Shown here one piece after another: positions 13,743 to 60,553 of a stretch of DNA of 64,000 nucleotides (the first letter of the stretch is position 1; the number at the start of each line of letters is the position of its first letter). The translations under genes and the position numbers were made by a program. The notes beneath the pieces are model-generated. The model was not told the origin of the DNA. It saw only the letters and a program-made list of their open reading frames with translations, and searched no databases. Origin of the DNA: Opitutaceae bacterium (GTDB taxonomy: Bacteria; Verrucomicrobiota; Verrucomicrobiia; Opitutales; Opitutaceae); assembly GCA_037969015.1 (NCBI GenBank), contig JBBKWO010000057.1, forward strand, positions 17,837 to 81,836, given 5' to 3'.

Positions 13743-13816
13743 TGCCTGATGGTGTAATGGCAGCACAGGTGACTTTGACTCACCTAGTCATGGTTCGAAT
13801 CCATGTCGGGCAGCCA
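13743..13816 (+). tRNA. tRNA-Gln (anticodon UUG), CCA encoded
   Basis: I folded a 74-nt cloverleaf by hand. The acceptor is TGCCTGA/TCGGGCA, the D stem GTGT/GCAC, and the anticodon stem GGTGA/TCACC with loop CTTTGAC. The T arm is CATGG-TTCGAAT-CCATG, the discriminator is G, and CCA follows. Confidence 0.9.
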
Positions 13817-20103: not shown

Positions 20104-20177
20104 GCGGCTGTAGTTTAGTGGTAAAACTCCACTCTTCCAAAGTGGTCTCGAGGGTTCGATTCCCTCCAGCCGCACCA
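20104..20177 (+). tRNA. tRNA-Gly (anticodon UCC), CCA encoded
   Basis: The 74-nt cloverleaf has acceptor GCGGCTG/CAGCCGC and anticodon stem CCACT/AGTGG with loop CTTCCAA. The T arm is GAGGG-TTCGATT-CCCTC. Confidence 0.9.
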
Positions 20178-33381: not shown

Positions 33382-36300
33382 TCAGCCCTCGATCACCACG
33401 AGCGTTTCGCCGGCGTTGACCGGACGGCCCTCGGCGCAGCGCACTTCACGGACCTTACCGGGACGACTAGCGACCACGGAGACTTCCATCTTCATGGACT
33501 CGAGGATCACCAACACGTCGCCTTCAGCCACGGTCGCACCAGGCGTAACCAAGACCTTCCAGACGTTGCCGGGGATGTGCGCCGGCACCGCCAGGCAACC
33601 TTCGGGCAATGCGCCTTCATCGACCAATGCCGCCGACTCTTCGTTGGCCGAGAAGTTGAGCTGACCACTTTCCACCCAGCGCTGACGCTCGGCCTCAAAC
33701 GCGGCCTGTTGGTGCGTCTTGAATGCGGTAATCGTATCGGCGTTGTCGGTGAGGAATTTCTGGTAGTCCCGTAGCTTGAAGGTCGTCTGCTCGATCTTGA
33801 GCTTCACCTTACCCTGCGGGAAATCCTCGCGGAACTTGGTGAGCTCTGCGTTCGACACCGGATAAAATCGGATCTGGTCAAAGAAGCGCAGCAGCCACGG
33901 TTTGCCGTCCACGAAATCGGCCGTTTGTTTATGGCGGTTCCACATCTGACAGGTGCGTCCGATAAACTGATATCCGCCCGGACCCTCCATGCCATAGACG
34001 CACAGATATGCACCGCCGATGCCGACGGCGTTCTCGGGAGTCCAGGTGCGGGCCGGATTATATTTTGTAGTGACCAACCGGTGACGTGGATCAACCGGAG
34101 TCGCCACCGGCGCCCCGAGATAAACATCACCCAGCGCGAGCACCAGGTAGCTCGCGTCGAAACAAATACGGTAAACCTCTTCGAGGTTCGGCAGGTCGTT
34201 GATGCGGCGGATGAACTCCAAATTGCTCGGGCACCAAGGCGCGTCCTTGCGCACGATCTGCATGTATTTGCGAATCGCCAGCAACGTGGACTCGTCTTCC
34301 CACGACAGCGGTAGGTGCACGATGCGCGACGGCACTTCAATGTCGTCGATCGCCGGCAGCTCAGATTCGGCTCGCAGCAAAATCTCCAGCAGTCGCTCCA
34401 TCGGGAGCAGACGGTAATCGAAATGCACCTGCAACGAACGAATGCCCGGCGTCAGGTCAATGAGGCCCGGCACCTTGTGACGTTCCAGCCAAGTTTTAAG
34501 CGCGTGCACCCGCATACGCATGACGATGTCGAGTTGCAGTGGGCCGTATTCGACCAGCAGGTTGGCGTCGCCCTGACGGCGATACACCACTTTCGGCGCC
34601 ATCGGTCGCTCCGCAAGTTCATGCAGCACAGCAGGCTCAGATAAAGTATAACCCATTGGGTTAAACTTTATCAGGGAAGGTTTGGGCACGCGCTTTAGGT
34701 TTTCGATCTCGGACTCTTGGGCGAAAGCGAGTTCGCGGGCCACCTGTGCAGTGAGCGGCAGAAAGCGGACTTTGTCGCCGGGCTTGAGCTGACCCATCTT
34801 CCAGAGCTCGGACTGCACTATCGTGAACGGGCAGACGAAGCCACCGCAGCTGGGGCCGTCGGGGCCGAGGATGATCGGCATGTCGCCGGTGAAATCGACG
34901 GCGCCGATGGCGTAGGCGTTGTCGTGGATATTACTCGGATGCAGGCCAGCCTCGCCACCATCGCGGCGGGCCCACTCGGGCTTAGGACCAATCAGGCGCA
35001 CACCAGTGCGGGCCGAGTTGTAGTGAACCTCGTAAGCCGTGCTAAGTAGCGTGCCGATGTCCGCCTCGGTGAAGAAGTCGGGCGCACCGTGCGGTCCGTA
35101 GAGCACACCGATGGTCCACTCGCGGGTGAGTGGTGGCTGGATGCTAGCGGGAGCTCGCAGCAAGGGAGCATCATCGGTGACACCAGCCGGCGTGGAAGTA
35201 TTGACGCGTAACACGTCGCCGACGCGCAGCGCTCGGCCAGCGTGGCCGCCAAAGAGGCCGAGGGTGAAAGTGGACTTGCTGCCGAGGTAGTCCGGCACGT
35301 CGAGTCCATGCCGAATGGCGAGGTAACCACGCAGACCGGGGCCGTCGACCGCGCCGAGGCGAAGCGTCTGACCGGCCTTCACGCGAAAGGCGCGGAAGCC
35401 GGCAACGGGTTTGCCGTTGAGCGTGGCACCGAGGTGCGCGCCGGTCAGCGCGACGACCGCCGGCGTGTTAAAGCGCAGGGTCGGACCGTTGACGGTGATC
35501 TCCAAGCCGGCCGCCGTGTCGGGATTGCCGACGAGGCGGTTGGCGAGGCGGAAGGACAGGTTATCCATCGGGCCGGAAGGCGGCACGCCGACATCCCAGT
35601 AACCAATACGCGCGGGATAGTCCTGCACGGTGGTCTGGGTGCCGCCCTCAAGGACTTCGATGGTGGCAGGCACGTAGGGCAGACTGGCGAGATATTTTGT
35701 CGTGACCGGACCACTACGGAACCCCTCGCTGGCGATAATTTGCCGCAGATAACCGAGGTTATTCTCGATGCCGTAAACGCGGGTGTCGGCCAACGCGGCG
35801 TCCATACGCGCGAGGGCATCGGCGCGGTCGCTACCTTTGACAATGATCTTGGCGATCATCGGATCGTAGAACGCGGAGACTTCGCTGCCGGTCTCGACCC
35901 AGGTCTCGACGCGCGCGGTCTTGGCGAAGTGAACATTGGTCAGCAAGCCAGCGGCGGGCTGGAAGTTTTTGCCCGGGTCCTCGGCATAGAGCCGCACCTG
36001 GATGGAATGCCCCGTCGGGACGGGCTGTAACCCAATGTTCGTATTACGAACATTGGGATCAGCCTGTATGCCGATGGGGGCGTCTAGAATGTTCGTATTA
36101 CGAACAAAGTCACAGAGGTTGAGTTCGCCGGCGGCGGCGCGGATCATCCATTCGACGAGGTCCACGCCGGTGACTTCCTCGGTGACACCGTGTTCAACTT
36201 GGAGGCGAGTGTTGACCTCAAGGAAATAGTAATGGCCCGCGGCACTGTCGTAGACGAACTCGACGGTGCCGGCATTGGTGTAGCCAGCCGCAGTGCCGAG

Positions 36301-37080
36301 ACGGGCGGCACAGGCGAGGAGCTCGGTGCGCTGTTCGGCGGTCAGACCTGGCGCGGGGGTTTCTTCAACGACCTTTTGATTACGGCGTTGCACCGAGCAG
36401 TCGCGTTCGCCGAGTGCGACGACATGGCCGTGGGAGTCGCCGAAGATCTGGACTTCGATGTGGCGGGCGTGTTCGACGAATTTTTCGAGGAAGACGCCTC
36501 CGTCCTTAAAATTGTTTTGCGCGAGGCGGACGACCGAGGTGAAGGCGTTGGCGAGCTCGGCCGGTTTGCGAATGAGCTGCATGCCGATACCGCCGCCGCC
36601 GCCGGTGCTTTTGAGCATGACGGGGTAGCCGATGCGGGCGGCCTCGGATCGCGCGGTGGCGAGGTCGGGCAGAAGTTCGGTGCCGGGCAGGAGCGGGACG
36701 CCGTTGGCCTTGGCGAGGGCGCGGGCGGAGTGCTTGGGACCGAGCAGGCGCATCTGTTCAGCGCGGGGACCAATGAAGGCAATGCCGGCTGCGGCGCAGG
36801 CTTCAACAAAGGCGGTGTTCTCCGAGAGGAATCCGTAACCGGGGTGGATGGCTTGGGCGCCGGTTTGTTGGGCGGCGGCGAGGATCTTGTCCGCATCAAG
36901 GTAGGATTGCGCGGCAGGCGACGGACCGATGTGGACGGCTTCGTCAGCGAGGGCAACGTGCAGGCTGTGACGGTCGGCGTCGGAGTAAACGGCGACACTA
37001 CCGATGCCCATGCGTTTCAGCGTGCGAATGATCCGGCAGGCAATGGCACCACGGTTGGCGATGAGGACTTTGCTGAACAC
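33382..37080 (-). CDS. Urea carboxylase family biotin enzyme (urea/guanidine carboxylase: BC, KipA/KipI-like carboxyltransferase and BCCP domains)
   Basis: With a GTG start at rc 37078-37080 the N-terminus reads (M)FSKVLIANRGAIACRIIRT, as in biotin carboxylases. The BCCP motif ESMKMEV is at the C-terminus. The ORF-track ATG at 37131 lies inside a hairpin repeat and adds a non-homologous MPFVTFVVKNNPTLPFP extension. Confidence 0.9.
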   Translation of the reverse strand: MFSKVLIANRGAIACRIIRTLKRMGIGSVAVYSDADRHSLHVALADEAVHIGPSPAAQSYLDADKILAAAQQTGAQAIHPGYGFLSENTAFVEACAAAGIAFIGPRAEQMRLLGPKHSARALAKANGVPLLPGTELLPDLATARSEAARIGYPVMLKSTGGGGGIGMQLIRKPAELANAFTSVVRLAQNNFKDGGVFLEKFVEHARHIEVQIFGDSHGHVVALGERDCSVQRRNQKVVEETPAPGLTAEQRTELLACAARLGTAAGYTNAGTVEFVYDSAAGHYYFLEVNTRLQVEHGVTEEVTGVDLVEWMIRAAAGELNLCDFVRNTNILDAPIGIQADPNVRNTNIGLQPVPTGHSIQVRLYAEDPGKNFQPAAGLLTNVHFAKTARVETWVETGSEVSAFYDPMIAKIIVKGSDRADALARMDAALADTRVYGIENNLGYLRQIIASEGFRSGPVTTKYLASLPYVPATIEVLEGGTQTTVQDYPARIGYWDVGVPPSGPMDNLSFRLANRLVGNPDTAAGLEITVNGPTLRFNTPAVVALTGAHLGATLNGKPVAGFRAFRVKAGQTLRLGAVDGPGLRGYLAIRHGLDVPDYLGSKSTFTLGLFGGHAGRALRVGDVLRVNTSTPAGVTDDAPLLRAPASIQPPLTREWTIGVLYGPHGAPDFFTEADIGTLLSTAYEVHYNSARTGVRLIGPKPEWARRDGGEAGLHPSNIHDNAYAIGAVDFTGDMPIILGPDGPSCGGFVCPFTIVQSELWKMGQLKPGDKVRFLPLTAQVARELAFAQESEIENLKRVPKPSLIKFNPMGYTLSEPAVLHELAERPMAPKVVYRRQGDANLLVEYGPLQLDIVMRMRVHALKTWLERHKVPGLIDLTPGIRSLQVHFDYRLLPMERLLEILLRAESELPAIDDIEVPSRIVHLPLSWEDESTLLAIRKYMQIVRKDAPWCPSNLEFIRRINDLPNLEEVYRICFDASYLVLALGDVYLGAPVATPVDPRHRLVTTKYNPARTWTPENAVGIGGAYLCVYGMEGPGGYQFIGRTCQMWNRHKQTADFVDGKPWLLRFFDQIRFYPVSNAELTKFREDFPQGKVKLKIEQTTFKLRDYQKFLTDNADTITAFKTHQQAAFEAERQRWVESGQLNFSANEESAALVDEGALPEGCLAVPAHIPGNVWKVLVTPGATVAEGDVLVILESMKMEVSVVASRPGKVREVRCAEGRPVNAGETLVVIEG
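36034..36105. repeat. In-frame 72-nt insertion-like segment inside the carboxylase ORF, bounded by two identical AT-rich palindromes
   Basis: AATGTTCGTATTACGAACA occurs at 36034-36052 and 36088-36106. The left copy extends to a perfect 13-1-13 palindrome, CCCAATGTTCGTA-T-TACGAACATTGGG (36031-36057). The segment encodes VRNTNI-LDAPIGIQADPN-VRNTNI. Confidence 0.9.
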
Positions 37081-37103
37081 GGGAAAAGGGAGAGTTGGAT
37101 TAT

Positions 37104-37192
37104 TTTTAACCACGAAGGTCACGAAGGGCACGAAGCCCGGACAGCAGAGCCGTTAATCTCTTCGTGAATCTTCGTGACCTTCGTGGTTAAAA
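37104..37192. repeat. Long hairpin element (family B, copy 1) between the DUF1989 gene stop and the carboxylase start
   Basis: A perfect 23-bp stem is formed by TTTTAACCACGAAGGTCACGAAG (37104-37126) and CTTCGTGACCTTCGTGGTTAAAA (37170-37192). The arms consist of a 9-nt periodic CACGAAG repeated three times. Confidence 0.85.
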
Positions 37193-57665: not shown

Positions 57666-57866
57666 AAAATCAAGCCCCAGACTTACAGCGTCCCGGAAAG
57701 CCGACGCCACAAAAATCCGGTTGTCGCCGATTTGTTACCTAGGAAGGGCCGAGCGACCGCCGCGGCCCTGCTGAAAACAGTCCCTCGCCCAGTAAACGCC
57801 GTCATAGCCCCCATCAGGATGAGACGTTGACCCTTGGCACGGCCCCCGCTTGGTTGAGTGGTTTAC

Positions 57867-59738
57867 ATGCTGACTATCGCCGACGTTTCCAAGTCCTACG
57901 GCACCCGCGAATTGTTTTCCGAGGTATCGCTCTTTATTTCCCGCAACGACCGTCTCGGCCTGATCGGGGCCAACGGCGCGGGCAAATCCACCCTGTTCGG
58001 CCTGATCCTCGGCGAGGAAAAACCCGACACCGGCACCATCGAATGGGAGCGCGGCGCCGACTTCGGCTACCTCCCCCAGGAAAGCGCGCCCGCCGGCGAC
58101 GAAACCATCCTGCACATCGCCACCAGCGGCAAACAGCTGGAGCCCACCGAGGACAACTACGACATCGACTACACCCTCGAACCCCGCGCCCGCAAAATCC
58201 TCGACGGTCTCGGCTTCAAACAGGACGACGCCGACAAACTCGCCAAGAGCTTCTCCGGTGGTTGGGTCATGCGCGCCCACCTCGCCCGCCTGCTCGTCGC
58301 CGAGCCCGCCCTCCTCCTGCTCGACGAACCGACGAACCATCTCGATCTGGAAGCCCTGCTCTGGTTCCAAGAATACCTGACCCGCTACCCGGGCGGCCTC
58401 GTGGTCATCTCCCACGACCGTGCCTTCCTCAACGCCCTCTGCACCGGCATGCTCGAGCTGCGCTCCGGCACCCTGCACTACTACGACGGCAACTACGACC
58501 GCTTCCTTGTCGAAAAAGAGGCCCGCAAATCCCAGCAGGCCGCCGCCTTCAAAAATCAACAGCGCGAGATCGCCCACCTTCAAGTCTTCGTCGACCGCTT
58601 CGGCGCCAAGGCCTCCATGGCCTCCCGCGCCAAGTCCAAGGAAAAACAGATCCAACGCCTCAAGGACGTCGCCGTCGACGAACCCACCGAGGAGTTGCGC
58701 AAAATGAACTTCAAGTTCCCGCAGCCCCCGCGCTCCGGACTCAAGGTCGTTGATCTCCAGCACATCGAGCAGGCCTACGGCGACCACGTCGTCTACGAAG
58801 ACCTCAACTTCCAGGCCGAACGCGGTCAGGGCATCGTGCTCATCGGCCCCAACGGCGCCGGCAAATCCACGCTCCTCAAAATCCTCGCCGGCGTCCTCCC
58901 CTTCCAGGCCGGCACCCGCGAACTCGGCAGCAACGTTGTCCCCGGTTACTTCGCCCAAAACCGTCTCGATAACCTCAACGCCGAAGCGACGGTGTTCGAG
59001 AACGTGATGGAGCTGCGCACCAACGAAAACCAGCTCACCGAACAACAGGCCCGCGCCATTCTCGGCGCCTTCCTCTTCCGCAAGGACGACGTGCACAAAC
59101 CCGTCTCCGTGCTCTCCGGTGGTGAGAAAACCCGCCTCGCCCTCGCCCGCCTGCTCGTCCGTCCGCCCAACCTCCTCCTCATGGACGAGCCCACGACGCA
59201 CTTGGACATCCAGTCGATCGACGCGCTCGTCATGGCTCTGCGCGCCTACGAAGGCACCTTGATCTTCATCTCCCACGACGTGCATTTCATCAAGGCCCTC
59301 GCGAAAAACGTGCTCCACGTTCACAGCGGCAAGCTCACCGCCTACGCCGGCGACTACGACTACTTCTTGGAAAAATCCAAAGCCGGCGACGCCCGCGCCG
59401 CGCTCACCTCCGGCCTCTCCGACAACCGCCCCAAGCAGGCCGCGCCTGCTCCCAAGCCCCAGGCCACCAGCGACAAAAAGAGCAGCGGCGCCGGCCAGCT
59501 CTCGCAAAGCGAAATCCGGAAACTCCGCTCCGAAGTCGAACGCCTCGAAGCCGAGGTCACTCAACTGGAAGAAAAACAGTCCGAGATCACCTCCGCCCTG
59601 GAGGCCCCCGAGACCTACGCCGACAAGGGCAAGTTCCACCACCTCAACATCGAGCTGAGCACCATCGTCGACCAACTCCAACAGGCCACCGCCGCCTGGG
59701 AAAAAGCCGTCGAAAAACTCACCGCCGCCGAGAGCTGA
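57867..59738 (+). CDS. ABC-F family ATPase (two ABC cassettes, no TM domain)
   Basis: The motifs are GLIGANGAGKST, LSGGWVMRAHLARLL, LLLLDEPTNHLD, GPNGAGKSTLL and LSGGEKTRLALARLL. A coiled-coil C-terminus is present. Confidence 0.92.
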   Translation: MLTIADVSKSYGTRELFSEVSLFISRNDRLGLIGANGAGKSTLFGLILGEEKPDTGTIEWERGADFGYLPQESAPAGDETILHIATSGKQLEPTEDNYDIDYTLEPRARKILDGLGFKQDDADKLAKSFSGGWVMRAHLARLLVAEPALLLLDEPTNHLDLEALLWFQEYLTRYPGGLVVISHDRAFLNALCTGMLELRSGTLHYYDGNYDRFLVEKEARKSQQAAAFKNQQREIAHLQVFVDRFGAKASMASRAKSKEKQIQRLKDVAVDEPTEELRKMNFKFPQPPRSGLKVVDLQHIEQAYGDHVVYEDLNFQAERGQGIVLIGPNGAGKSTLLKILAGVLPFQAGTRELGSNVVPGYFAQNRLDNLNAEATVFENVMELRTNENQLTEQQARAILGAFLFRKDDVHKPVSVLSGGEKTRLALARLLVRPPNLLLMDEPTTHLDIQSIDALVMALRAYEGTLIFISHDVHFIKALAKNVLHVHSGKLTAYAGDYDYFLEKSKAGDARAALTSGLSDNRPKQAAPAPKPQATSDKKSSGAGQLSQSEIRKLRSEVERLEAEVTQLEEKQSEITSALEAPETYADKGKFHHLNIELSTIVDQLQQATAAWEKAVEKLTAAES

Positions 59739-59748
59739 GGACCCCTCC

Positions 59749-59843
59749 GAAGTTGTAGCCACGGCCGTCCCCGGCCGTGTTCCGGAAGCGACGTCAAACG
59801 TAGCCTCACGCCAAATACGCCCTCGGGGACGGGGCGGCTACAT
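59749..59843. repeat. REP-like GC-rich palindromic element (family A, copy 2)
   Basis: The sequence is GAAGTTGTAGCCACGGCCGTCCCCGGCCGTGT...GGGGACGGGGCGGCTACATC. It fills the gap between the convergent ABC-F and methyltransferase stops. Confidence 0.85.
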
Positions 59844-60553
59844 CACTTTCGCAGCACCAGCATCGTGCCGCTGCCGACGAAGAACCGGTGCTCAACCGAC
59901 CGCACCTCCACTTCAATGCCGAGCGCAGCCAACTCCACGCGCAGCCGCTGATGTTCGTAATACGAACATCCATCAGAACCACAAACAGGGTAGATGCGCA
60001 CCTCGCCGCGACTCACGCGCACCAGCTCGCGGCAGGCCGCCAAGTGAAAATTAAAGTCGAGCTGCTTGGCGTAGATGAACAGCAGGTGCGCACACAGCAC
60101 CGTATCGAAAGCGCCGTCCTCAAACGGCAGGTCCGGCAACGCACCGCCGACATAACGGCCATGCACAAAGTGCTGCTCGTAGTCTTCGACAAATACGCGT
60201 GCCGATTCGCGGCGGGAGCCGACCGCCTCGTCGATCGAGCCAAACGTGCCGCGTTGAAACAACTCCGGTTTGCGTCGCATTTCCGCGGCCACCCGGCGGT
60301 GGTCGATCAACGCATGCGTGGCCAACGCATCCGCCGTCAACCCGTAGAGCGGATCAACCGCCGTCGCGTCGACTCCACGCGCATTAGCCCCGGCGGTAAA
60401 CGCCGACGGACCGGCGGCGACATCTAGCACCCGTCGCCCTCGCAGCGCGTCGGCATCGAGTGCGAACATGGAACAGTATTCGTTAAATTCGCGCCCAAAG
60501 AACGCGATGGATGACAGGGAAAAGGAGGGAAGAACGGAAGAAACAGCGTGCAT
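59843..60553 (-). CDS. Class I SAM-dependent methyltransferase
   Basis: Motif I is RVLDVAAGPSAF and the post-I acidic residue lies in VDATAVDP. The protein is 236 aa. Confidence 0.7.
   Translation of the reverse strand: MHAVSSVLPSFSLSSIAFFGREFNEYCSMFALDADALRGRRVLDVAAGPSAFTAGANARGVDATAVDPLYGLTADALATHALIDHRRVAAEMRRKPELFQRGTFGSIDEAVGSRRESARVFVEDYEQHFVHGRYVGGALPDLPFEDGAFDTVLCAHLLFIYAKQLDFNFHLAACRELVRVSRGEVRIYPVCGSDGCSYYEHQRLRVELAALGIEVEVRSVEHRFFVGSGTMLVLRK
59950..59970. repeat. Third copy of the AT-rich palindrome, inside the methyltransferase ORF
   Basis: GATGTTCGTA-A-TACGAACATC is a perfect 10-1-10 palindrome. On the coding strand it is read as ...DGCSYYEHQ..., a different frame from the VRNTNI reading in the carboxylase. 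Confidence 0.9.

Follow-up and report, generated by a model that had tools for sequence, protein, structure and literature searches.

Introduction

Several bacterial systems offer points of comparison for the element described here, a short palindrome of Opitutaceae. DdrO of Deinococcus, an XRE-type protein of about 130 amino acids (aa), has as its site a 17-bp palindrome of 8-1-8 design, the radiation/desiccation response motif (RDRM), with tens of sites per genome, including one at its own gene. Chromosome-organizing pairs, such as matS/MatP, SBS/SlmA, NBS/Noc, parS/ParB, and ram/RacA, combine specific palindromes of 12 to 16 bp (13 bp with a central base in matS) with a dedicated binding protein; these sites number tens per chromosome, are often intragenic, and function independently of local transcription. 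In Neisseria, the 20-bp palindromic repeat dRS3 bounds variable spacers of 50 to 150 bp in intergenic arrays, the neisserial intergenic mosaic elements (NIMEs), and is a target for mobile DNA. Repetitive extragenic palindromes (REPs) are imperfect palindromes of 20 to 40 bp, and their partners, the RAYT transposases, are HUH/Y1 tyrosine enzymes encoded by a single-copy gene with REPs on both sides. REPs are defined by a terminal GTAG (or CGTC) tag (PMC3733652). GTAG REPs of Opitutus terrae and intragenic REPs, both described by Di Nocera et al. (PMC3733652), are elements different from ours. The element analyzed here is a perfect 10-1-10 palindrome at positions 59950 to 59970 of a 64,000-nucleotide (nt) stretch of an Opitutaceae genome (assembly GCA_037969015.1, contig JBBKWO010000057.1, positions 17,837 to 81,836), which we call the window.

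We think it likely that this palindrome is the cognate, operator-like site of a predicted XRE-like helix-turn-helix protein of about 120 aa. A preliminary description of the window had listed binding sites for a repressor among its candidate explanations. This candidate is now the best-supported reading, given a gene that is associated with the site and a recognition helix that varies with it, but the protein is not of the DeoR/GlpR type proposed at the time. The REP/RAYT pair is the closest analog at the level of the system, while all the features that define it at the sequence or enzyme level fail here. At the level of mechanism, the closest analogs are XRE repressors with palindromic operators and the chromosome-organizing site/protein pairs.

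Three exact copies of a 17-nt core in the window

The window contains three copies of the palindrome, which form two clusters:

59950 to 59970, palindromic (no strand): copy 3, GATGTTCGTAATACGAACATC, perfect 10-1-10 with A at the center on the plus strand.
36031 to 36057, palindromic (no strand): copy 1, CCCAATGTTCGTATTACGAACATTGGG, perfect 13-1-13; encodes PNVRNTNIG in a urea carboxylase.
36089 to 36107, palindromic (no strand): copy 2, a perfect 17-nt core at 36090 to 36106 with asymmetric flanks; encodes FVRNTNI.

The 17-mer TGTTCGTAWTACGAACA is exact in all three (36036 to 36052, 36090 to 36106, and 59952 to 59968), so that both the perfect palindrome at 59950 to 59970 and the core it was said to have in common with two copies in the carboxylase were borne out by the letters of the window. 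Copies 1 and 2 are 54 bp (18 codons) apart, and copy 1 matches the full 25-nt consensus of the family defined below. Copy 3 lies inside a methyltransferase-like open reading frame (ORF), 107 to 127 nt 5' of its stop codon. None of 100 dinucleotide-preserving shuffles of the window yielded a match to the 17-mer, even when up to two mismatches were allowed, and the number expected by chance is 0. The three copies are thus far beyond chance, as had been claimed, with the correction that the palindrome is not a frequent repeat. Scanning the window with the 19-mer at up to three mismatches revealed no copy beyond these three. Two clusters in 64 kb are nevertheless unusually dense compared with related genomes.

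The copies are translated in different frames, as VRNTNI in the urea carboxylase and as CSYYEH in the methyltransferase, and both readings fall in real minus-strand ORFs. The differing frames imply that conservation does not act at the protein level. The element must therefore be conserved as nucleic acid, as first suggested: three reading frames are used across copies, and the codons of the palindrome are kept, with one exception, in the urea carboxylase orthologs whose DNA was read, while neighboring codons diverge.

The half-site ATGTTCG is a 7-mer close to what we take to be the half-site of Escherichia coli GlpR, and on this likeness the palindrome had been linked to a DeoR-type repressor of glycerol-3-phosphate genes. 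We now regard an operator of this kind as barely credible. The scan at up to three mismatches confirmed that the glp promoter of the window has no site, the three copies present being all intragenic. The 8-1-8 spacing is odd, whereas that of GlpR is presumably even, which places the half-sites 1 bp out of register. The genes adjacent to the copies are functionally unrelated, and the gene that varies in step with the site encodes a small, predicted XRE-like protein, not a DeoR-like one.

A sharply conserved palindrome family restricted to Opitutaceae and their relatives

One genome for each of 185,579 species was scanned with the query TGTTCGTANTACGAACA, leaving the central base free. At least 118 loci carry the 17-mer, of which about 100 belong to Opitutaceae or related Verrucomicrobiota. 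The carriers among the matches listed include Lacunisphaera, Rariglobus, Opitutus, and metagenome-assembled genomes (MAGs), often with two to four copies per 8-kb stretch. About 16 of the matches listed fall in other phyla, all as single copies; as many would be expected by chance in 596 Gb. The palindrome is therefore found in far more than three copies, as a genome-wide count was expected to reveal if it were a true family. Only 8 single 17-mer matches were found in 2.9 million viral contigs, and a phage origin was rejected. The literature search retrieved no paper with the 17-mer or its 15-nt core, and no paper on palindromic repeats of Opitutaceae that describes this palindrome or the small protein family presented below.

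Three of the matches outside Verrucomicrobiota differ in structure (Comamonadaceae, Pseudacidovorax, and Rhodospirillales; L037 5769 to 5803, L053 1657, and L114 1904, loci being given L numbers and proteins P numbers throughout). There, the 17-mer is followed by a second half-repeat, TGTTCGTAATACGAACAAATGTTCGTATAATGAA, in a divergent promoter, and the gene beside it has an N terminus that looks IclR/PcaR-like. This is probably an ordinary proteobacterial operator, unrelated to the family in Opitutaceae.

In all 212 copies, the palindrome has A or T at its center and never G or C. Information content peaks across the 17 core positions and declines symmetrically on both sides, from 1.5 to 1.6 bits at ±1 to about 0.9 to 1.0 bits at ±2 and 0.15 to 0.3 bits at ±3 and ±4, with nothing further out; this profile indicates a footprint of about 21 bp. 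The strong consensus is accordingly the 21-bp AATGTTCGTAWTACGAACATT, which extends more weakly to the 25-bp form CCAATGTTCGTAWTACGAACATTGG. The central base swaps between A and T in orthologous copies (urea carboxylase alleles; L067, L075, and L089), the other 16 core positions being fixed. Such swapping without G or C fits a symmetric site that needs an A:T center, or inversion mediated by a hairpin.

Perfect cores are far more common than degenerate ones. In 954 kb of fetched sequence, 155 cores match perfectly, whereas 7 have one mismatch, 1 has two, and 5 have three. Solo 8-mer half-sites are barely enriched (22 observed against 12 expected, some of them in decayed copies), which shows that the unit is the whole palindrome; the same count led us to reject an uptake sequence. 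Copies are few in each genome. Only two extra clusters were found more than 500 bp away from the ascertaining copy in 837 kb. There are at least 6 clusters on one 5.16-Mb chromosome (OY970130.1, with the matches listed ranging from 1.0 to 4.9 Mb), at least 4 in 3.8 Mb of an isolate, and at least 5 to 6 per Mb in two MAGs. The background density is about one cluster per 100 to 400 kb, and we estimate 5 to 40 clusters per genome.

A small gene for a predicted helix-turn-helix protein is bracketed by the palindrome

At six loci found through the palindrome (L005, L013, L031, L069, L100, and L004), copies lying 380 to 456 bp apart bracket an ORF of about 120 aa. Its protein family comprises 264 clusters in a collection of 5.8 billion proteins. 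Those with a name are all called hypothetical, the named sources are Opitutaceae, Opitutales, or Verrucomicrobiota, and no precomputed Pfam domain is listed for any of the 264. When 1.84 billion representatives were searched exhaustively with a profile, only 223 members were retrieved; the multi-repeat "homologs" P0372 and P0490 are TPR-like proteins that match just the GDAERAL motif, and they were discarded as spurious.

The association was also analyzed in 45 metagenome loci fetched through the protein alone, without ascertainment by the palindrome. The main palindrome, with no more than one mismatch, lies within about 170 bp of the gene in 30 of these loci, and most of the 30 whose contig spans both gene ends carry copies on both sides. 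When all W-centered (A or T) 8-1-8 palindromes are considered, one is close to the gene in 42 of the 45. The upstream copy ends 1 to 3 nt before the start codon (...ACATTGGC ATG) in 10 of the 12 loci displayed, often with a second copy about 55 to 115 bp further 5'. The downstream copy either follows the stop codon by about 10 to 20 nt or extends over the end of the coding sequence, in which case the protein has a C-terminal NVRNTNIG. The fact that the gene is bracketed by the site implies autoregulation, which would operate through these flanking copies. At least seven MAGs hold both the gene and dispersed copies of the palindrome.

In two lineages, the arms of the upstream palindrome are extended to 13 and 17 nt and cover the start codon (CATGCC...GGCATG; L031 3528 to 3562 and L129 179 to 213). 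As RNA, these extended palindromes would sequester the start codon.

Divergent homologs of the protein have palindromes of their own, all 8-1-8 with a W center, and their predicted recognition helix differs accordingly:

TGTTCGTA-W (main palindrome): recognition helix HRARIGEYF.
AGTTCGTA-W: recognition helix HKARVGEFF.
AGTCCGTA-W: recognition helix HVSRITEYF.
CTTGCGTA-W: recognition helix DPARVTEFF.
GAACCGTA-W: recognition helix APGRVHEFF.
TTTGCGTA-W: recognition helix HPARVTEFF.
GTCACTTA-W: recognition helix PRQRMHDFL.
GTCATATT-W: recognition helix PRQRLHQFL.

The AlphaFold model of the protein (predicted local distance difference test score of 70) has an N-terminal helix (residues 7 to 34), an unstructured arginine-rich linker, and a four-helix C-terminal domain. 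The linker motif RRPRxxRGATLRP is near-invariant in the family. Foldseek matches in the PDB were mostly of the XRE/Cro/cI type at the top of the ranking (the N-terminal domain of CapH, the lambda cI repressor, HipB, and C-proteins of restriction-modification systems), and the segment LARELGVHRARIGEYF...MPDAERAL may form the helix-turn-helix and the following helix of an XRE-type domain. The family has one invariant histidine, no HUH motif, and no match to the Pfam Y1_Tnp model; the first two features indicate that it is not a RAYT-type transposase.

Two further observations concern related palindromes. A second class of perfect W-centered palindromes, TGTCAnnTA-W-TAnnTGACA with arms of up to 22 nt, is present in the same Opitutaceae genomes (L021 2148 to 2192, L042 2973 to 3003, L071 7497 to 7523, L046 5156 to 5186, L065 7075 to 7091, and L178 2830 to 2846), in one case within a urea carboxylase gene. 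In a divergent subfamily of the helix-turn-helix gene (L154, L158, L160, and L163), the flanking copies are the related 17-mers GTCACTTAATACGTGAC. More than one paralogous protein/palindrome system may therefore exist, perhaps even in a single genome.

Copies are retained at orthologous positions and seem to enter host genes by insertion or patch replacement

Copies were compared at orthologous positions outside the window. In L067, L075, and L089, the palindrome occupies equal codons of an orthologous gene; flank identity averages 72%, and the core is unchanged but for its center. The pairs L061/L103 and L016/L091 also have the site at an equal position, with flank identities of 74 to 88%. 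Such conservation, together with that in the host genes below, indicates that the core is held by selection on DNA or by some homogenizing process.

The two host genes of the window, and the insertion found in one of them, are as follows:

33382 to 37131, minus strand: urea carboxylase gene (1,249 aa), identified by its Pfam domains; host of copies 1 and 2.
36010 to 36115, minus strand: in-frame insertion of about 78 nt relative to orthologs of 1,203 or 1,204 aa, delimited by Pfam limits, ortholog alignments, a tree, and the DNA of filled and empty alleles.
59843 to 60553, minus strand: class I S-adenosylmethionine (SAM)-methyltransferase-like gene (236 aa); host of copy 3.

The insertion in the urea carboxylase falls within the biotin carboxylase part, where it occupies the linker that joins the ATP-grasp domain to the C-terminal domain, and consists of copies 1 and 2 plus a spacer that evolves freely. 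The protein is closest to those of Rariglobus and other Opitutaceae. A large majority of its orthologs have a stretch of 55 residues between fixed anchors, while 12 of 120 carry one or two translated palindromes, and the ten carriers that were aligned have an insertion of 10 to 40 residues at the identical place, in the linker after the ATP-grasp domain. Carriers are scattered over the gene tree. All of them have GHS or GCS just downstream, where empty alleles have GAS. Two orthologs, P0019 and P0063, combine the GHS signature with a short residual insertion and no palindrome, and look like scars of palindrome loss. At the DNA level, the window, L105, L177, L179, and L180 have an identical core, GTT CGT AWT ACG AAC, save for one synonymous change from CGT to CGC in one copy of L177. 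These codons are poor in G and C at third positions and, but for this change, are the same in all orthologs whose DNA was read. The spacer between the two copies is unalignable, and its length is stable at about 18 codons.

The methyltransferase gene has no indel. CSYYEH stands in place of (R/Q/L)(P/E)Y(P/A)E(L/I), and the DNA alignment shows about 12 differences from the closest palindrome-free orthologs within a patch of about 19 nt, with zero net change in length. Only the window and P0242 (L164/L165) have the palindrome in this gene. The comparison of orthologs called for in the preliminary description thus finds most methyltransferases without the palindrome, and likewise most urea carboxylases. 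No target-site duplication or direct repeats were evident in the filled and empty alleles of either host gene. An ABC-F-type ATPase gene (57858 to 59738, plus strand) is convergent with the methyltransferase gene, the two being separated by a gap of 104 bp. Since copy 3 lies 212 bp past the ABC-F stop codon, it belongs to a 3'-3' junction region, though it is formally intragenic.

The insertion in a loop of the urea carboxylase, its patchy presence on the gene tree, and the short-patch replacement in the methyltransferase are all points in favor of a REP-like selfish miniature repeat. Such a repeat would be non-autonomous, would form hairpins as single-stranded DNA or RNA, and would be spread by a transposase or by repair; copies would be nearly neutral in 3' regions and loops, with the helix-turn-helix gene as a favored place of insertion or as a passenger regulator. 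We consider this explanation unlikely. Neutral repeats decay, yet perfect copies outnumber those with one mismatch by about 5 to 1 among secondary sites. Cores are unchanged at orthologous positions even where adjacent neutral sequence and the spacers between copies are saturated, which argues against a selfish repeat in passive decay. Moreover, no target-site duplication was evident in the alleles examined, and the bracketed gene has no match to a Y1 transposase. The selfish repeat also leaves the existence of palindromes specific to each protein subfamily without explanation.

Copies are depleted in coding sequence and promoters and form local clusters

The positions of 119 clusters were analyzed relative to crude gene calls based on GC frame, which labeled 80% of the sequence as coding. 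On these calls, 38 clusters fall within genes; convergent gaps contain 24, tandem gaps 34, and divergent gaps 11. Hence, coding sequence is about three-fold depleted of copies, and about two-thirds of the copies are intergenic. Clusters are more frequent than expected in convergent gaps and less frequent in divergent ones (P = 0.046). Of the 34 in tandem gaps, 23 are closer to the upstream stop codon (P = 0.058). This pattern is not that of a promoter operator. Intragenic copies use all combinations of frame and orientation save the one that creates TAA. The 185 adjacent or host proteins share no common function, and the few recurrent families among them are almost solely pairs of orthologs, which argues against an ordinary promoter regulon and led us to reject a common one. 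With about one-third of the copies inside genes, the proposal of a repeat family that tolerates coding regions was borne out. Genic or intergenic position, strand, and frame, once recorded, revealed no concentration in the promoters of one regulon.

The modest bias to sites just past stop codons and between convergent genes would be compatible with an element that acts as RNA, in which a stem of 9 to 12 bp closed by a triloop, in 3' untranslated regions or coding sequence, stabilizes mRNA against 3' exonucleases or makes the ribosome or RNA polymerase pause, a role that has been suggested for classical REPs. The predicted hairpins are stable (−13.1, −22.4, and −9.0 kcal/mol; z-scores of −2.4 to −6.3). 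Moreover, the helix-turn-helix gene has a copy directly before its start codon, and this ATG is within the palindrome in two lineages. An RNA element is still improbable to us. Loop and stem are invariant in sequence where a constraint on structure only would permit compensatory changes, and covariation is confined to the outer positions ±1 to ±4. The hairpin is not followed by a T-run, so it is not an intrinsic terminator. No Rfam family matches the palindrome, the sole Rfam matches in the window being two tRNA genes on the plus strand (13743 to 13813 and 20104 to 20174). Palindromes specific to protein subfamilies would again be left unexplained. A hairpin role in RNA may coexist with protein binding.

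Clusters of two or three copies were found in 28 cases, and arrays reach 16 copies. The spacers of the 28 doublets have no similarity to each other, even within one genome, save for one marginal match of 20 nt, and a miniature inverted-repeat transposable element (MITE) or REPIN with a conserved interior was therefore rejected. Compared with the single copy of its orthologs L016 and L091, L021 has two, spaced by 54 bp; L032 likewise has two where L050 has one. Doublets seem to arise by tandem duplication of the palindrome with its flank, followed by divergence. The largest array (L125 2581 to 4466, 1.9 kb) has 16 palindromes spaced by 54 to 339 bp around the helix-turn-helix gene and a tRNA-like gene identified by eye. 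A segment of about 345 bp is duplicated within this array, which marks the neighborhood of the helix-turn-helix gene as a hot spot for copies. Start-to-start spacing in arrays is irregular (37 to 339 bp), unlike that of clustered regularly interspaced short palindromic repeats (CRISPR). A resemblance to integron attC sites was rejected by inspection: the order of GTT...AAC is reversed, and the array spacers contain no ORFs.

One array contains an insertion sequence (IS). In L024 (1351 to 5090; OY970130.1, 1.016 to 1.024 Mb), two tandem IS701-like copies with a period of 1,814 bp, each encoding a DDE_5 transposase (504 to 550 aa) and each bounded by the palindrome, are inserted in a tandem palindrome array with a 37-bp period. 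The palindrome runs directly into the terminal inverted repeats (CGGGCCAAACTCCAGGCGATGTTCGTA / TACGAACATCGGCTGGAGTTTGGCCCG). This would be explained by IS ends that resemble a half-site and are directed to the center of the palindrome, or else by duplication of the whole palindrome when the IS inserted. The transposase was found in no other locus. The idea that the palindrome consists of abutted IS ends was rejected, L024 being a one-off insertion into a palindrome array and not the source of the family.

Several of these features also speak for the selfish repeat: the doublets and arrays, up to the 16 copies of L125, the depletion of coding regions and divergent promoters, and the IS701-like element bounded by copies. 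Intragenic REPs have likewise been documented (PMC3733652). Set against them are the lack of a conserved interior in the doublets, a copy number of only tens per genome, the lack of a GTAG or CGTC tag, and the presence of a single adjoining transposase, a DDE enzyme, at one locus. Besides, elements recognized as hairpins do not typically have a "loop" of one base, whereas protein sites do.

Comparison with described systems

The system has several features in common with REP/RAYT systems (REPtrons and REPINs). In both cases, a short dispersed palindrome is associated with one dedicated gene that the repeat brackets, repeat and gene are lineage specific and vary in step, and several distinct repeat/gene families exist. 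In both, too, copies are mainly extragenic but occur within some genes, form doublets and clusters, and are retained for long at orthologous positions. The differences concern the partner, which is here a non-catalytic helix-turn-helix protein without a HUH motif, and the repeat itself: CCAATGTTCGTAWTACGAACATTGG lacks both tags, and its arms match perfectly around a 1-nt center, unlike the imperfect stem-loop of REPs. Copies number tens and not hundreds, and the core is far less degenerate. Unlike REPINs, the doublets have no conserved spacer and look like diverged local tandem duplications. MITEs differ in that the unit here is the palindrome of 21 to 25 bp itself, with no conserved interior and no direct repeats at filled and empty alleles.

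With XRE/Cro-type repressors, the system has in common a regulator gene that adjoins its own palindromic sites, as in the 42 of 45 loci ascertained by the protein. The 17-bp 8-1-8 design is that of the RDRM sites of DdrO. RDRM sites are degenerate and lie in the promoters of a coherent DNA repair regulon, whereas the sites described here are near-identical, one-third intragenic, and depleted in promoters, with adjacent genes that have no common function. No sequence similarity of the small protein to DdrO was detected in Pfam and PDB profile searches. The chromosome-organizing pairs resemble our system in their specific palindromes, a central base in the case of matS, tens of often intragenic copies, and a dedicated binding protein (a putative one here), and they differ in the protein family and in the site, which here is longer and appears by insertion or patch replacement, not by point mutation. 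The L125 array and the IS of L024 recall dRS3, which differs in its variable 8-bp center, its hundreds of copies, and the lack of a dedicated helix-turn-helix gene.

A candidate site/protein partnership

If the palindrome is the site of the small helix-turn-helix protein, it would work as double-stranded DNA, presenting a high-affinity, two-fold-symmetric site to a protein dimer. The arginine-rich arm may read the obligatory A:T center, and the AT-rich TAWTA core would suit contact through the minor groove. In the recognition helix, the invariant arginine may contact the CG of CGTA, a dinucleotide that most subfamilies conserve, and the variable positions of the helix may read the variable outer bases. 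At sites outside promoters, the bound palindrome could perhaps serve as a symmetric roadblock or insulator, or as a mark of chromosome architecture, at gene ends and in tolerant coding loops. We hold this with low confidence, and suggest it because it would fit the placement of the copies, their low number, and the lack of a common regulon. New copies may originate as insertions or as replacements of short patches, and nearby ones as tandem duplicates of the palindrome with its flank.

Several results weigh against recognition of the palindrome by this protein. The helix-turn-helix gene is not encoded within the window. The fold assignment is weak, with Foldseek E-values of just 0.2 to 1; the Pfam YdaS (Cro-like) match is sub-threshold, at 15 bits against a cutoff of 30; and a sequence profile search of the PDB with the family found no homolog. 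The bias of copies to 3' ends is only marginal, with a P of about 0.05 on crude gene calls. At the symmetric flank positions ±1 to ±4, bases covary more than composition would explain, and in a few copies the arms match perfectly over as much as 25 nt. A dimeric protein requires neither of these two features; both also count for a selfish repeat, and they suggest that template switching or hairpin processes act on top. Part of the covariation may come from pooling lineages with different preferred flanks (e.g., CGAT...ATCG in OY970130.1). Finally, the association of gene and site could mean local autoregulation only, with dispersed copies being something else.

A further step, which we put forward tentatively and hold to be doubtful, is that the palindromes and the protein form a REP/RAYT-like, vertically persistent partnership, in which perfect palindromes are served by a non-catalytic DNA-binding protein of a new family, as a new class of site/protein system. 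Several paralogous pairs would then coexist, including those of the TGTTCGTA-W-, GTCACKTA-W-, and AGTCCGTA-W- types. The protein would maintain the sites, which would then be selected for binding, and promote their local duplication or spread, and the sites would be roadblocks or architectural marks in coding loops too.

Meaning for Verrucomicrobia

The intragenic copies illustrate that a constraint at the DNA level can force foreign peptides, such as VRNTNI and CSYYEH, into enzymes. Such peptides matter for annotation and for the way in which "insertions" in protein alignments are read. The family also bears on how short palindromes can persist for long, as persistence appears tied here to a binding protein and not to a transposase. 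If the small protein does bind these sites, it would represent a new family of DNA-binding proteins without a Pfam model, with about 220 representatives among 1.84 billion proteins, whose recognition code could be read directly from natural pairs of protein and site. It would also provide a genome-wide site/protein system for Verrucomicrobia, a phylum with almost no characterized regulators or nucleoid proteins.

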